Part shown: in pieces, positions 2,936 through 58,527 of the stretch
How positions within the stretch are numbered: the first letter of the stretch is position 1
Layout of the letters: every line of letters starts with the position of its first letter
Virus record (IMG/VR): IMGVR_UViG_3300043754_000046
Coordinates: 9,981 to 73,980 of that record
DNA from: a virus
Direction: 5' to 3' (one strand)
DNA length: 64,000 nucleotides
Notes under the pieces: model-generated
The model's database searches: none
What the model saw: the letters and a program-made list of their open reading frames with translations, nothing else
What the model was told of the DNA's origin: nothing
Made by a program: the position numbers and the translations under genes

Positions 2936-3556
2936 TCAGTACCAGCTATGCGCCTGCCAGAACGACCATGCTGCGCAGGGGCTTCCGTAGGTGGCATTCA
3001 TGTAGGAAATGCCCCATCGGACCTGTGTGGCGCCGTTGGTTCGCCAGTCGGCTCCGGCGGAGGCCATCTTGGAGCCCGGAAGTGCCTGCATGAGGCCGTA
3101 GGCACCCGACGAGGGGTTCGTGGCGTAGACGTTCCAGCCGCTTTCGCGCTCCACGATGTTACTGAAGCAGTTGAACTCGGCAGAGCTCAGGATGGAGCGT
3201 GCGTATGCGGCGGGCGATGAAGAGGCCGGTGGAGCGTACGTGTTGTGTGTTGTCGGCGCGGGCCTCGGCGTGGGGTTGGGCTTTGGCTGGGCAACCGCGT
3301 GCGCCGGTGCCGGAGTTGCCGCGCGCGTCGGCTTGGGAGTGACCTTCGGCTTCGGCGAGGGAGTGGGTGCAGAAATACGAACGACGAGCGACTTCTCCGG
3401 ATACTTTTCCAGGAAGGGCTCGTCGTAGGTCGTAGAAGCGGAGTTTGCCGCAGTGGTATGGCTTGGTGCGGGGTCGGCTGCTGCGGGGGCGCTTGCTACG
3501 AGGGTGGTGCCAATCAGTAGGAGTACGCCTGCGCAGAAGGTGGCCTTGCGGTACAT
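2936..3556 (-). CDS. Secreted lytic transglycosylase (SLT/Rpf-like)
   Basis: Signal peptide (MYRKATFCAGVLLLIGTTLVASAPAAA), Pro/Ala/Thr linker, then IVERESGWN...SSGAYGLMQALPGSKM...QVRWGISYMNATYGSPC, the actinobacterial SLT domain. Confidence 0.85.
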   Translation of the reverse strand: MYRKATFCAGVLLLIGTTLVASAPAAADPAPSHTTAANSASTTYDEPFLEKYPEKSLVVRISAPTPSPKPKVTPKPTRAATPAPAHAVAQPKPNPTPRPAPTTHNTYAPPASSSPAAYARSILSSAEFNCFSNIVERESGWNVYATNPSSGAYGLMQALPGSKMASAGADWRTNGATQVRWGISYMNATYGSPCAAWSFWQAHSWY

Positions 3557-4918: not shown

Positions 4919-5713
4919 TCAGCCGTAAACGAACTTGCAGAGCAGAGCCCAGCCGCGCGGGCCGATGGCGGGGTCGGAGGCGACACCAGCGTTGTTGAAG
5001 TTGTGCTTCTTGTTGAATCCGGATACGGCTGCCTGCGTCTTCGGTCCGTAGTTGTCGGAGTACGGAGCAGACGGGTCCATCCACTGCGTCTGCTTGAGCA
5101 GGTACTGGAGAGTCTTTGCCGAGGGGATGGCCTTGTTGGGGGCTATGCCCGTCGGAAATGCCGGGGCCTTGCGCGGCGGGAAGGTGTTACCCGGAGGAGG
5201 GGGCGGAGTCGTCTGTCCGAGAATCTGAGCCGCGCGGGCGAGAATCTGCGGACGCTGCGCCTTGATGGGATCCCCGGGGCAGTTGGGGTGGTTTCCCCAG
5301 GCGACGCCTCCCATCCCGTGCCAGCCGAGACCGGAGCCATTCGGGTCGTCTGTGCTCTGAAGGGGGACGTTGTACGTCTTGTGGAGCCAGGCGTAGAGCT
5401 GAGCCGCATTCTCCACCTGCGAGGAAGTCAGGGACTGGCCGGAGTAGCCCTCGTTCTCGATGCTCACCCAGTACCAGTTGCCCTGCATTTCGGCCCAGGC
5501 ACGGTCGTCAGTGTCCACGAGCTGCTTCAGGCCACCGGACTTAGGGTTCAGGAAATGCGCGCTGGCCTGTGACGCCGGATTCGTGAACCACGCCTCGGAT
5601 CCTGCTTCAGTGCCCTGCTGGATGTGGAGAACGAGTCCCTTGTGGGCAAGCATCCCGTTCGGGTGCTCGTTGGGCGTCGGGCCGATCCATTCCGTTCCGG
5701 GCATGCGTGCCAT
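4919..5713 (-). CDS. Endolysin, N-acetylmuramoyl-L-alanine amidase with peptidoglycan-binding domain
   Basis: LVLHIQQG, ASAHFL, SIENEG, GWH...HPNCPG zinc-amidase motifs; C-terminal YGPKTQAAVSGF...IGPRGW PG-binding-like domain. Confidence 0.85.
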   Translation of the reverse strand: MARMPGTEWIGPTPNEHPNGMLAHKGLVLHIQQGTEAGSEAWFTNPASQASAHFLNPKSGGLKQLVDTDDRAWAEMQGNWYWVSIENEGYSGQSLTSSQVENAAQLYAWLHKTYNVPLQSTDDPNGSGLGWHGMGGVAWGNHPNCPGDPIKAQRPQILARAAQILGQTTPPPPPGNTFPPRKAPAFPTGIAPNKAIPSAKTLQYLLKQTQWMDPSAPYSDNYGPKTQAAVSGFNKKHNFNNAGVASDPAIGPRGWALLCKFVYG

Positions 5714-6144
5714 TACGCGGTCTCCTCTGTGTTATTCGATATGCCGAAGTGCTGCTTGATGTCTTCGAGGTGCTGCACTGTCACCCTATTCAGCTTCAGG
5801 GAAAGGCCGTTAGTCACGTAATCCTCCTCGGCTCTGAGGCGGTCGTGCTCGGCTTGGCGATTCTGCGAGAGCAGGAGAATCGGCCCCGTAAATCCGGCTT
5901 GGAAGCTGTACACAAGGTTGAGGAGGACCCACGGGTAGGCGTCCCACATCAGGTGCCAGCCGTGGACGGAGTTGAGGATGATCCACGCAATGGTGAAAGC
6001 GGCCTGGCAGATGATGAATGCCCATGAGCCCATGCCGCTCGCCATGCCGTCGGCGACATGGTCGCCAAGGGAGCGTTCGTCATGCCTTGCCACGTTTGCC
6101 GGATGCAGGTGTCCGTCTGTGGGCATGGGGCTGTTCTTGCTCAC
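5713..6144 (-). CDS. DUF1003-like membrane protein
   Basis: MGSWAFII...W..LN...WDAYPWVLLNLVYSFQAGFTGPILLLSQNRQAEHDR is the DUF1003 pattern. Confidence 0.75.
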   Translation of the reverse strand: MSKNSPMPTDGHLHPANVARHDERSLGDHVADGMASGMGSWAFIICQAAFTIAWIILNSVHGWHLMWDAYPWVLLNLVYSFQAGFTGPILLLSQNRQAEHDRLRAEEDYVTNGLSLKLNRVTVQHLEDIKQHFGISNNTEETA

Positions 6145-6617
6145 TCTGTCTTGCCTCCCTTGAGCTTGCTTGCCGGAACGAACTCGGCAGGAGACTGGAC
6201 ACCGGCCTTCTTCAGGCGGACGGCAAGCCAGAGAGGTTCAGGAAGTACGTGGATGCCGTAGTGAGTTCTGTGATGGTTTGAGCACAAAACTTCTAGATTG
6301 GCCGGTCCTTCGACAAAAGCCTGGAAGTCTTCGTCGGAGTCGAAGTGCAGCCCGAGCATCTTTTCCACCTTCTCCGGGTCCACAGAGGAGATCTCGGAGA
6401 ATTCCACGTATGAGTGGTGAAGCTCGGGCTGCCCGCCGCAGAGCTCGTCATCAACGATGCACTTCCACAGTCCCTGCCTCTTGAGCCTGGCCTTGGCCTG
6501 CTCGAAAAGGTGATAGTGAGGGTCCTGCTCGCGCGGGGCGTGGTCCTCAACGTGCTGCTTCAAATGCAGGGTGAGCATCTGGTCGTGCGCCTTGACGACG
6601 CGCTTCTCGTCGGTCAT
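6141..6617 (-). CDS. Hypothetical protein with HNH-like His/Cys pattern
   Basis: C...C...ELHH...NLEVLCSNHHR...GIH arrangement. Confidence 0.5.
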   Translation of the reverse strand: MTDEKRVVKAHDQMLTLHLKQHVEDHAPREQDPHYHLFEQAKARLKRQGLWKCIVDDELCGGQPELHHSYVEFSEISSVDPEKVEKMLGLHFDSDEDFQAFVEGPANLEVLCSNHHRTHYGIHVLPEPLWLAVRLKKAGVQSPAEFVPASKLKGGKTE

Positions 6618-6619
6618 TT

Positions 6620-6865
6620 CTATCCCTGGTGCCGAATCGGGGAGTGGTAGTGAGTGTCGCCCGAACCCATGCGGTGCGTTCCGTCGGGCTGTTCCTTGTA
6701 ACCGCTCTCGATATAGCCGAAGTTGGTCGGGTACAGATCGGCCCGAGCGTCCTGGGTCGTGGTTTCCACGAAGCCGCCACGGTCCCGGTTGAGCTTCTTG
6801 TACGTGCCGTCCGTCATTCCGTCGTTCAGCGAGCCGTTCATGGACCGCTGGGGCGCGTAGGCCAT
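6620..6865 (-). CDS. Small hypothetical protein (81 aa)
   Basis: ATG 6865 after AGGAG; C-terminal part of the 6620..7285 ORF. Confidence 0.65.
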   Translation of the reverse strand: MAYAPQRSMNGSLNDGMTDGTYKKLNRDRGGFVETTTQDARADLYPTNFGYIESGYKEQPDGTHRMGSGDTHYHSPIRHQG

Positions 6866-6873
6866 TTCGACTC

Positions 6874-7098
6874 CTAGATCTTCTTGGTGCCCTTGCCGTT
6901 CTTGCTGCTCTTGCTGAGGCGGTCGGCCCGGTTGGTGAACTGGTGCTGGGCGAGGGCCGGAGCGACGATCGAGGTCACCCGGCGACCAGCGCCCAGTCCC
7001 CCGGCACCGGGCCTGACGGTGAAAGCCACGTTGTCCCCGGCACCGGCCCGCCGTCGGTCGTCGGCACGCTTGGCTGGCTTCACTGCTCGCTTGGACAT
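6874..7098 (-). CDS. Small basic protein (74 aa)
   Basis: Lys/Arg-rich, tightly packed with neighbours; contains ALAQHQF. Confidence 0.65.
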   Translation of the reverse strand: MSKRAVKPAKRADDRRRAGAGDNVAFTVRPGAGGLGAGRRVTSIVAPALAQHQFTNRADRLSKSSKNGKGTKKI

Positions 7099-7101
7099 CG
7101 G

Positions 7102-7590
7102 TCACCACCTCCAGGTGGGTGCGTACTTGGCCAGGTCGGCTGCCTTCAGGGGCTGCGCGGTGCCGGGCGTCGCATTGGATCCGGGCATGCTCGGAACATC
7201 GGCGGGCCTGCCCACAGGAGCCCAGCGCTTCTGGCCGTTGGCCTGGCGGCGCAGGCCGCTCGTCAAGTCCAGCCAGCTCGGCCACTCGTAGGCCTGCCGA
7301 TCGAGCCGCTCGCCCTTGTGCACACCCCGGGTGTAAGGGCGGTCGTAGCGGGTGTTGGCGCCATAGGACTGGAGGAGCTTGTCCTGGTGCCGGTCGTTGG
7401 GTACCGACCCGAGGTAGCCGTCGGGGTACTGGGCCTCCGGTGTCCTGCCGGACATCATCATCCGGCGCTCGTCCAGAATGTTGCGCGCGCCGACCACCGG
7501 GAAACCGCCGCCTCCCCCGCTCACCGTGGAGCCCGGCTGCGCACTGCCCAGTGGGGGCGTGTACGAGAGGGTCGTATTGGTCATGGTCAA
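7102..7590 (-). CDS. Hypothetical protein (162 aa)
   Basis: Start overlaps the upstream stop; contains QYPDGYLG and GVHKGERLD. Confidence 0.7.
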   Translation of the reverse strand: MTMTNTTLSYTPPLGSAQPGSTVSGGGGGFPVVGARNILDERRMMMSGRTPEAQYPDGYLGSVPNDRHQDKLLQSYGANTRYDRPYTRGVHKGERLDRQAYEWPSWLDLTSGLRRQANGQKRWAPVGRPADVPSMPGSNATPGTAQPLKAADLAKYAPTWRW

Positions 7591-7769
7591 CCGCTCCTGG
7601 TGGTGAGCTGGGGCGCGCTGCCCTTGACGGTGATCATGGTGGTGGTCTGGCTGCCGGGGCTTGTGCTGCCGCCCTGACCGTTGGAGGACACCTGGCCCGT
7701 ATTGGCACCTGTCGGCGTCGACGTGTTGGTGCCGAACTGTGCGGGCTGGAGGTTGGCAGAGGCCGTCAT
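7587..7769 (-). CDS. Small Thr/Gly/Ser-rich protein (60 aa)
   Basis: ATG 7769 immediately after the upstream stop; begins MTASANLQPAQF. Confidence 0.55.
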   Translation of the reverse strand: MTASANLQPAQFGTNTSTPTGANTGQVSSNGQGGSTSPGSQTTTMITVKGSAPQLTTRSG

Positions 7770-7770
7770 G

Positions 7771-8085
7771 TCAGGCCCCCTGCCCGTAGTCGCGGTAGCA
7801 GTCGAAGGCGGCCGTGCTGTGGCTGGCGCCAATCGGCTTGACCCGTCGACCAACTCCACTGGCCTCGGGGCAGTTCGAGTAGTCCTTGTACACCTGGACA
7901 CCGCCAACGTGGCCGTAGCGCTCCTGGACCTGCTCGCGCGGGACGGCCGTCTTTTCGGGCGCGGTCTCCTTGTTGCGCGGAGATCGGGGCATCAGCATGC
8001 CCTTCTCGGCCGGACGGTAGTTCACGTGCACGGCACTCTCGCCCATGGTGGGAAACTGGCCGCTGCTGAGATTGCGACTCGACAT
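7771..8085 (-). CDS. Hypothetical protein (104 aa)
   Basis: ATG 8085 after GAGGAG; begins MSSRNLSSGQF. Confidence 0.7.
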   Translation of the reverse strand: MSSRNLSSGQFPTMGESAVHVNYRPAEKGMLMPRSPRNKETAPEKTAVPREQVQERYGHVGGVQVYKDYSNCPEASGVGRRVKPIGASHSTAAFDCYRDYGQGA

Positions 8086-9729: not shown

Positions 9730-10118
9730 GCTGCGTCATCTCCGGGCTCCGAAAGCAGGCGGTAGCCGCGTGCGTTCGGGTAGAGGCGCCTTGTCTTGAT
9801 GACAGTGACACATCCACGCATGTCCTTGTAGATCGTCCAACCCTTGTCGAGGGCCTCTTGGACGTGCCTGTAGTTGGTGAGGATGGTGCAGTTGGCGTAC
9901 CTCCCGTCAAGCATCAGACCGTCCACCCGCAGCGTTCGGCCTTCCTTGCGGTAGTCGCCGTCCTCATACACCTGGCCGGGAAGAACCTCGACCGGCAGCA
10001 TGTCTGCCTTGGCGTCCACCCCGGCTCGCCACCAGCGCCCAGTCGGCTTGTTCCAGTACCGCCGGAGCCGTGTCGGGACTCTCACACCCCGGTAGATGTC
10101 GGGAACCTGGTCCTGCAT
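9726..10118 (-). CDS. Hypothetical protein (130 aa)
   Basis: Coupled ORF within the operon, preceded by GGAG. Confidence 0.65.
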   Translation of the reverse strand: MQDQVPDIYRGVRVPTRLRRYWNKPTGRWWRAGVDAKADMLPVEVLPGQVYEDGDYRKEGRTLRVDGLMLDGRYANCTILTNYRHVQEALDKGWTIYKDMRGCVTVIKTRRLYPNARGYRLLSEPGDDAA

Positions 10119-57210: not shown

Positions 57211-58495
57211 TCAGTTGGTCTGGCTGATGACGACAGCCTGGTCAGTAATGAGACCGAGGCCCCAGATGGCATACCAGGCCAGCGCGTGCTCGCGGCCGAA
57301 GTCGAGCACGCCACCATCGCGGAGCTCCACCGGAAGGCTGATAGCGTGACCGAAGGCATTGTCACCGATCGAGATGGCTTCATAAACCGTCGCCGGGTTA
57401 GAAGAGTTCCCGTTGGAGATCTGCGTGACCTGCGTAGTCTCGACAAAGATCTGATCGTTGATCCTGCCGATTTCGCCGATCATAAACTGGCCCGGCTGCG
57501 CGTACTTGGTGACCTCGATCCAAGAAGGATCTTCACGCAGAACGCGCGACTGATGCGGGTGAACAAAGGTCACGTAGGAGTCCCCAATTCTCGGGACGTT
57601 CTTCGTCGCCAGTGTCTCGGTGATATCGAGCGTGAGGCCGGTGGTAAACCCGTAGGCACCGGTCAGAGCCGAAGTCGAGGCCGCCGCAGAACCGAGGTCA
57701 TAAGGCGACAGCGGAGTACGCGAAGACTCCGTCAGGGCCATCTTGTTGTACCCGTAAAGTACCGAGCTTGCCTGGAGAAGAGTGTCACGACTCTGCTGGT
57801 CGAGCCACATGGCCATGTTGCGCCCGAGCAGCCGGGAAGCCGTCGCCATAACGTCGTCAAAGGACGAGTTAAGCAGGAGCTCCGAGACGGCGATTGCCAT
57901 TCCGTGCTCCGCGACCGTAATCGAGAACATGGAAGCAGCAAGCGCATTGGTCTGCATGCGAACACCTTCAACGAGCTGGCTCGCCGAGGGCAGGTTGTTG
58001 TAACGGGCGAAGTTGACGGTCAGACCCGGCTGGACACCCAATTCAGTCTTCTTGCAGGCTGTTACCCCGTACCCGAAGGTACGTGGACCGGTCATTTCTG
58101 CCGGTCTCCTACGGTTTTCCATACCGTAGGCCCAGACTATATCTTCATCTCCAGTTCTGACCTACTGTCCACCTAAAGGTCAGTCCTGTTGGAGATGCCT
58201 CCCGTGTAGTCGTTACGGAGTCCCAGGTGTGGGTTCCCTCGGTATTCCCCGTTGCTGCGATCGAGTGCTACGAGGAGGAGGGGTTCACCGATACAGGGTG
58301 GTTTTCACTCGCCGGTCACCCGACGAGGCGGCCAATTCAAACCGCGAACTGCTCGAAGCGCAGAATGGGCATGCTCTGGAAGAGAATTTCCTTCGACCAG
58401 ATGGTCTGGATGACCGGGGTGAGCTGAGAGTTCGCCCCGGAGTAGTTGGTCGGGTTGGCACTCAGGAACTGAGTGCCGGTGATAGCGCTAGCCAT
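57211..58495 (-). CDS. Major capsid protein, two exons (58495-58341 and 58054-57211; 332 aa spliced)
   Basis: Exon 1 MASAITGTQF...LRFEQFA follows AGGAGG; joining GT|C gives FAV-KKTELGVQPGLTVNF; exon 2 has EHGMAIAVSELL, VHPHQ, GEIGRI, DFGREH.LAWY capsid motifs. Confidence 0.9.
58055..58340 (-). ncRNA. Group I self-splicing intron, 286 nt, no ORF
   Basis: 5' exon ends in U, intron ends in G; P1 GCGGU/GCCGC; P2 with GUGA loop; P4 UCGGU/ACCGA; P7 GACUA/UAGUC within ACGACUA and AAGAUAUAGUC; P8 CAUCUCCA/UGGAGAUG; three P9 hairpins. Confidence 0.93.
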
Positions 58496-58527
58496 CTAGC
58501 GCCTCCTTTACAGAACTCGTGTCGGCT

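Follow-up and report, generated by a model that had tools for sequence, protein, structure and literature searches.

Group I introns are already known from virion genes of actinobacteriophages, namely those of cluster J mycobacteriophages. The major capsid gene of LittleE carries one whose splicing was proven both by reverse transcription PCR (RT-PCR) and at the protein level, by N-terminal sequencing over the junction, and the 5' 156 bp of this intron are 98% identical to the intron of phage BAKA (PMC3706429). The latter, located in the minor tail gene of BAKA and Optimus, has 265 nt and no open reading frame (ORF), follows a U, ends in G and was found by RT-PCR to be spliced, its exact junction being deduced by analogy (Pope et al. 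2013, PLoS One 8:e69273, PMC3706429). Here we describe a homologue of the BAKA intron in the major capsid gene of a soil phage, the host of which is probably Streptomyces. The window analysed comprises 64,000 nt (positions 9,981 to 73,980) of the 109,317-bp IMG/VR virus record IMGVR_UViG_3300043754_000046, which is 100% complete according to CheckV; positions without a contig name refer to this window, and the gene lies on its minus strand.

We assign a probability of about 0.9 to the reading that this element is a functional, ORF-less, self-splicing group I intron, which interrupts the Val52 codon of the single major capsid gene of the phage. Such an intron had been proposed in an earlier note on this DNA, and the proposal is now backed by a full-length match to a covariance model, by homology to the BAKA intron, by covariation in the helices, by joint variation of guide and exon, and by an exact junction.

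The interrupted capsid gene

The capsid gene starts at an ATG preceded by a ribosome-binding site (Table 1), as the earlier note had it, and this start is backed by the N-terminus MASAITGT, which it shares with the Streptomyces phages BRock and LuckySocke. The first exon had been described as 51 codons running into a TGA. The stop is indeed present (58339..58337), while the open frame before it has 52 codons, because the 52nd, read as GUU, spans the splice site. Excision of the 286 nt between 58340 and 58055 joins GCG GU/C AAG and restores, as claimed, a protein of 332 amino acids (aa), which is colinear with the uninterrupted 340-aa capsid proteins of BRock and LuckySocke. Eighteen residues over the junction (MPILRFEQFAVKKTELGV, divided between FAV and KKTELGV) are identical in these two phages. 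Compared with BRock, the capsid gene shows no other gap with a stop in it, which speaks against additional core-less mini-introns.

Exon 2 shows 65% identity to the annotated major capsid proteins of the Streptomyces phages BRock, LuckySocke, Alone3, GiJojo and pSt2308 and 44% to that of Bacillus phage BCD7, as well as weak Pfam matches to Phage_capsid_4 and Phage_capsid_3. In these phages the capsid gene is a single uninterrupted coding sequence (CDS) located 3' of the portal and scaffold genes, and the gene order in the window is the same. A tblastn search with exon 1 found the two exons to be contiguous in 79 of 80 metagenomic relatives, including the closest one, contig L007 (86-87% identical). 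Protein homology allows two junctions, GU/C and GUU/; the terminal G, P1 and P10 fit GU/C only, which is also the sole U...G pair satisfying the constraints of frame and length.

The ORF list, as had been pointed out, truncates the capsid and gives it a false N-terminus: it contains a 303-aa ORF (57211..58122) whose first 23 residues have no match in any homologue. The ATG of this ORF opens a frame that runs into exon 2, and on this ground a capsid produced without RNA splicing might be imagined, either as two polypeptides (a 52-aa piece and the 303-aa ORF) or by ribosomal bypass of 286 nt. This is hardly credible, given that the ATG is placed in the P9 loop and lacks an upstream Shine-Dalgarno sequence, that the 23 additional residues are peculiar to this ORF, that a bypass of such length has no precedent, and that the insert is a ribozyme verified by a covariance model. 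An assembly artefact or chimera was ruled out by contigs of two other, independent soil studies, which are identical over both exon-intron boundaries. Contigs from four soil runs contained neither an intron-less near-identical allele nor a spliced form.

No second capsid gene was found in the whole genome, and the intron is the only group I intron in it. A dead intron remnant in a capsid pseudogene of a defective or decaying phage could be considered, as the genome is metagenome-derived, its viability is unproven, and splicing of the intron is a prediction from sequence. Both exons, however, are intact, free of frameshifts and under purifying selection, with 65-87% identity to relatives; all core helices and conserved junctions match the family consensus, and the junction bases of P1 and P10 are preserved. 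Moreover, this is the sole capsid gene of a complete 109-kb genome, and samples of independent origin contain exactly this allele. We regard a remnant as very improbable, and a functional intron remains the preferred explanation.

Ribozyme core and covariation

The Rfam group I model RF00028 gave no match in the window at its gathering threshold, because the score lies under this cutoff (50 bits). A permissive scan below the cutoff, with the model that the earlier note had advised, gave a full-length match (58349..58109, model positions 1-253) of 40 bits, with E values of 9e-9 locally and 1e-6 window-wide, which is the only match with E<0.1 in the 64 kb. The same model gives 28.6 bits for the BAKA intron, which is spliced in vivo, and 44 bits for a homologous intron of contig L008, and the whole intron family scores under the cutoff. 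Since the RT-PCR-validated BAKA intron scores so low, sub-cutoff values are normal for this family, and they reflect the coverage of the Rfam model, not missing group I features. A group II intron was rejected, there being no Rfam match and the insert being too small. The fold z-score of the insert is -4.

When the region was compared with phage isolates by megablast, nothing matched. With blastn, the core weakly matched 28 records of cluster J mycobacteriophages, in their minor tail gene, which corresponds to the BAKA/Optimus intron, and no other sequenced phage isolate showed the intron family. The introns of the window, BAKA and L008 align over their full length with 73% column identity (up to 77% in a second alignment) and have in common the blocks of the core as well as a GUAACA-N-G tail at the 3' end; the pattern GUAACA-N(4-12)-G is common to the family. 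A covariance model built from these three introns (R1) gives 208 bits for BAKA, which belongs to the family accordingly.

All group I elements named in the earlier note (P1, P10, P4, P7, P8, the P9 hairpins and the terminal G) were located in the window, together with the other helices of the core, including the P3/P7 pseudoknot (Table 1). The U·G wobble is present at the 5' splice site, the terminal G is accompanied by a P10, and the guanosine-binding pair of P7 is accompanied by J8/7; the J8/7-P7 block agrees with the Rfam consensus. The sense strand of the 286 nt contains no ORF, the insert being filled by ribozyme helices. Subgroup IA2, to which the classical phage introns of T4, SPO1 and Twort belong, is defined by the extra helices P7.1 and P7.2 between P3' and P8; these are absent here, because the 3' strand of P3 directly adjoins P8 and leaves no room for them, and the intron might instead be IC3-like.

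Table 1. Positions of the capsid gene parts and intron elements in the window
Feature	Position	Strand	Remarks
Ribosome-binding site	58502..58507	minus	AGGAGG, 6 nt before capsid ATG at 58495; read directly
Capsid exon 1	58341..58495	minus	155 nt, 51 codons + GU of Val52; ends in U58341, the U of the 5' splice site
Group I intron	58055..58340	minus	286 nt, no ORF; RF00028 40 bits, family model R1 240 bits
Capsid exon 2	57211..58054	minus	C of Val52, 280 codons, stop
P1	GCGGU 58345..58341 / GCCGC 58332..58328	minus	U58341·G58332 wobble
In-frame UGA	58337..58339	minus	one base into intron; ends exon 1 translation on unspliced RNA
Internal guide sequence	58328..58335	minus	GCCGC for P1, UUG for P10
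P10	UUG 58335..58333 / CAA 58054..58052	minus	intron with exon 2
P2 hairpin	58308..58327	minus	8 bp, GUGA tetraloop
P3	CCACCC 58301..58296 / GGGAGG 58203..58198	minus	one A·A mismatch
P4	58291..58286 / 58244..58239	minus	within P4-P5-P6/P6a domain 58217..58291
P5	58283..58280 / 58250..58247	minus
P6	58238..58236 / 58219..58217	minus
P6a	58233..58230 / 58225..58222	minus
P7	GACUA 58211..58207 / UAGUC 58139..58135	minus	holds guanosine-binding G-C pair (G58211-C58135)
P8 extended hairpin	58197..58146	minus	P8 58197..58190/58153..58146; inner stem 58183..58177/58163..58157
J8/7 and P7 3' strand	58135..58146	minus	GAAGAUAUAGUC; most conserved core block
P9	58130..58108	minus	peripheral hairpin
Spurious ATG	58120..58122	minus	inside intron, P9 loop; taken as start by ORF callers
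P9.1	58106..58086	minus	loop CAGAAAUGA nearly invariant
P9.2	58083..58068	minus	UUCG loop
3' tail	58055..58066	minus	GGUAACAGCCUG, ends in terminal G (omega G, 58055)

A search with a 28-base core pattern led to 74 viral contigs, and model R1 to 113 copies of the intron, 97 of them unique. R1 was used for collecting and aligning only, and the canonical helices were tested separately, because its RNAalifold structure mis-pairs P3/P7; support for P3 and P7 is the stronger because neither was imposed by the aligning model. Splice junctions of the relatives were set by capsid homology and frame, a predictor based on U...G and the longest frame having been discarded as unreliable in GC-rich DNA. 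Among the 97 unique relatives, pairing reaches 98% in P2 (many pair types; 29-39% when the register is shifted), 92% in P3 (compensatory CG/GC/AU changes), 99% in P4, 97% in P7 (AU<->GC, 61/21, and UA<->CG changes), 95% in P8, 87% in P9 (95-100% in its seven inner pairs) and 100% in P9.1, with covariation; the register-shifted controls for the helices gave 14-49%. Of 90 sequences, 89 retain the guanosine-binding G-C pair of P7. In P9.1 the 9-nt loop (58092-58100) hardly varies among 96 relatives, in contrast to the free covariation of the stem, suggesting a conserved tertiary contact with some partner.

Guide and exon shift together from site to site: the window has the pair GCCGC/GCGGU, site 38 has GGGG(A)/AUCCU, site 311 has GGGC/GCCU and contig L152 has GCCA/UGGU, and P10 varies with the site as well (UUG/CAA, CUCGG/UCGAG, UUUG/CGAA). 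At the site used in the window, the sequence GCG GU^C AAG occurs in all six distinct intron-bearing alleles, as against 3 of 65 intron-less ones, and the third-codon positions fixed in the carriers are exactly the bases paired in P1 and P10. In 31 of 38 family members an in-frame stop is found no more than six codons from the 5' splice site, the value for the two other frames being 9%, and this is true of sites in each of the three codon phases. Such a stop agrees with the known requirement that ribosomes stay off the ribozyme, a principle that comes from the introns of phage T4, in which an early in-frame stop likewise follows the 5' splice site.

The anatomy of the intron and the established chemistry of group I introns together allow a splicing mechanism to be proposed. 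After production of the late transcript, ribosomes on exon 1 would halt at the UGA, a single base into the intron, and therefore would not unfold the ribozyme, which could fold into P1-P9.2 including the P3/P7 pseudoknot. The guide GCCGC would pair with the exon GCGGU, placing U58341 in the U·G wobble, and a free guanosine held at the G-C pair of P7 would attack 3' of U58341. P10 (UUG/CAA) and the terminal G58055 would then set the 3' splice site, and ligation of the exons to GCG GUC AAG (...FAV KK...) would yield the 332-aa capsid protein.

Several points weigh against an active self-splicing intron. Its RF00028 score of 40 bits is below the 50-bit gathering cutoff for membership; P1 has just 5 bp and P10 just 3 bp; P3 contains an A·A mismatch, though 28 relatives have one too; RNA runs with the window phage or a Streptomyces prophage relative were looked for, and none was found; and autonomy from protein cofactors is not a property that a sequence can decide. 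The short P1 and P10 and the mismatch in P3 would also suit an intron excised in vivo without being autonomous, one requiring a host or phage protein (an RNA chaperone or a maturase-like factor) or the translating ribosome for efficient folding and splicing. The strong conservation of the early in-frame stop suggests that ribosomes may be involved, as was reported for the td intron of T4. The catalytic core is nevertheless complete and surrounded by an extensive stabilising periphery (P2, the P8 extension, P9, P9.1 and P9.2), the insert folds with the z-score given above, neither a maturase nor any other intron ORF is present, and many small group I introns of bacteria and phages self-splice in vitro. 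Such dependence seems unlikely to us, and we infer both splicing of the window intron and its independence from protein.

Capsid genes as sites of a wider intron family

The earlier note called capsid-gene introns rare, which is true of the literature but not of nature, as about 88% of the 97 unique copies are located in capsid genes, which belong to five unrelated capsid sequence groups. BRock-type capsid genes hold 43 copies, and capsid genes of the PF05065 (HK97) type, which form two groups, hold 32, some of them at the GG/Y site used by the LittleE intron; about 10 occur in other capsid types (Phage_capsid_3, Phage_cap_E, SU10-like), two in a portal gene and two in the BAKA-type tail gene. 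The bias holds on contigs of at least 50 kb, which are informative because hallmark-gene detection bias should not matter there. In BRock-type genes at least 13 sites are occupied (near residues 34, 38, 46, 52, 70, 99, 131, 138, 233, 241, 254, 305 and 312), and most targets end in NCGGU/, matching the common guide GCCG. Some close relatives of the window's capsid gene carry several introns: five in L128 (IMGVR_UViG_3300049781_000089, 5694-7881) and L105 (1697-4045), four in L121 (4456-6397), and three family members each in L101, L106 and L136.

On the capsid tree the window falls into a clade with 99% support, the capsids of which are 86-87% identical. The intron complements of this clade are none in L007, one at site 38 in L008 and L142, one at site 52 in the window and five in L128, and the site-52 intron needs at least five changes on the tree. 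Among near-identical capsid genes the intron is present in some and absent from others, a patchiness that favours repeated gain and loss over passive retention. Identity is 83% between introns that occupy one site in different contigs and 65% between introns at different sites of a single contig, suggesting that they are inherited or transferred site by site and now and then move to a new site; the same figures rule out recent within-genome duplication as the main mode of spread.

Individual relatives illustrate the variety of sites. The intron of L008 (2185-2457; also in L142) has 273 nt and is homologous to the window intron; it is inserted 39 nt upstream of the window's site (KEIL/FQ) in a capsid gene whose product is 86% identical, and its guide is re-tuned to GGGG(A), pairing with AUCCU. 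In one clade of near-identical capsids, site 46 is occupied in L141, L148, L103, L110, L124, L107 and L091, and site 52 in L130 (2319-2562); the latter intron, six codons from site 46, looks like a site switch. Contig L125 has two family introns in a BRock-type portal gene (2227-2445 and 2969-3153) and another in its capsid gene (5247-5469). Five model matches within 2.4 kb (122-2514) make up an extremely intron-dense gene stretch in L165, a 3019-bp contig of an actinomycete metagenome-assembled genome.

The window intron contains no endonuclease ORF, and the whole genome gave no match to HNH, HNH_3 or GIY-YIG, LAGLIDADG not having been searched genome-wide. The re-tuning of the guide and the use of all three codon phases would be the signature expected of transposition of the reverse-splicing type, not of endonuclease homing; the introns might move by reverse splicing, or else by recombination during co-infection. 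A broader interpretation can be offered only tentatively: the window intron may be a copy of a large endonuclease-free actinophage family, not yet described as such, which colonises mainly capsid genes, spreads by matching or re-tuning its 4-5-nt guide and keeps the early stop in each copy. Of these points, the family itself, its capsid bias, its patchy occurrence and the stop-codon rule are established by the comparisons above, and its mode of movement is proposed. No publication on the intron family or on the colonisation of capsid genes at many sites was found, subscription journals being outside the search.

Behind a family member on the minus strand of L138 (611-1126) lies an ORF that weakly matches LAGLIDADG_3 (E 5e-4), and some copies may carry an endonuclease, as that of LittleE does. 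In L159, L133 and L137 a Cys-rich ORF lies directly downstream of the intron.

In five Streptomyces assemblies (L163, L166, L167, L168 and L169), capsid and portal genes of the BRock type are present together with family introns at site 46 or 38; one of these copies, that of S. diastatochromogenes ATCC 21481, is located inside a contig of 7.7 Mb. These assemblies point to a Streptomyces host, and BRock-like elements may exist as prophages.

Significance and comparison with described introns

The intron leads gene callers to mis-annotate the capsid gene as the 303-aa ORF with its false N-terminus and an orphan 52-aa ORF. As predicted, the most abundant protein of the phage would depend completely on the activity of a ribozyme. 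In soil actinophages this intron family resides chiefly in capsid genes and not in those of DNA metabolism. The clade of four phages, with the differing intron complements given above, represents a natural system for the movement of endonuclease-free group I introns. Laboratory study is possible in Streptomyces strains such as S. diastatochromogenes ATCC 21481 and S. mangrovi CGMCC 4.7117, in which prophage-like capsid genes carry family members (intron at site 46).

Among described introns, that of BAKA resembles the window intron in architecture, in size (265 vs 286 nt), in the lack of an ORF, in the guide GGCCGC(C) targeting ...GCGGU/ and in the GUAACA...G tail, and it is also located in a virion structural gene of an actinophage of about 110 kb. 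It differs in that the gene is a tail and not a capsid gene, in the phage lineage and in the host (Mycobacterium vs probably Streptomyces); the identity of the cores is only about 75%, and splicing was shown by RT-PCR for BAKA and is predicted from the letters of the DNA here. With the published boundaries of the BAKA intron (L005, 1426-1690), a single unpaired G stands between P1 and P10 (AUUU/AAAU), and the exact junction may deserve re-examination. Many cluster J genomes in GenBank, namely Beem (L006, MZ622169, 241-2239) and 11 other records, lack an annotation of the BAKA-type tail intron; in Beem the tail gene is split into two CDS (genes 36 and 37), and elsewhere the intron region has no feature.

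The LittleE intron is likewise a group I intron in an actinophage major capsid gene. It has about 820 nt and a LAGLIDADG-type endonuclease ORF, in contrast to the ORF-less 286 nt of the window intron, and its capsid is of the HK97/PF05065 type and not of the BRock type.

Landthaler and Shub reportedly described, in 1999, three group I introns in one gene, orf142 of the Staphylococcus phage Twort. This gene provides a precedent for several small group I introns per phage gene, as in the relatives L128 and L105, whereas the window gene has one intron only; the Twort introns are of subgroup IA2 with P7.1/P7.2, which the window intron lacks. Finally, the introns of T4 td, nrdB and nrdD (sunY) and those of Bastillevirinae DNA polymerase genes, the latter averaging about 800 nt (PMC11878797), have the same self-splicing chemistry, but they reside in genes of nucleotide metabolism and replication and usually carry homing endonuclease ORFs, whereas the window intron is placed in a capsid gene and has no ORF.

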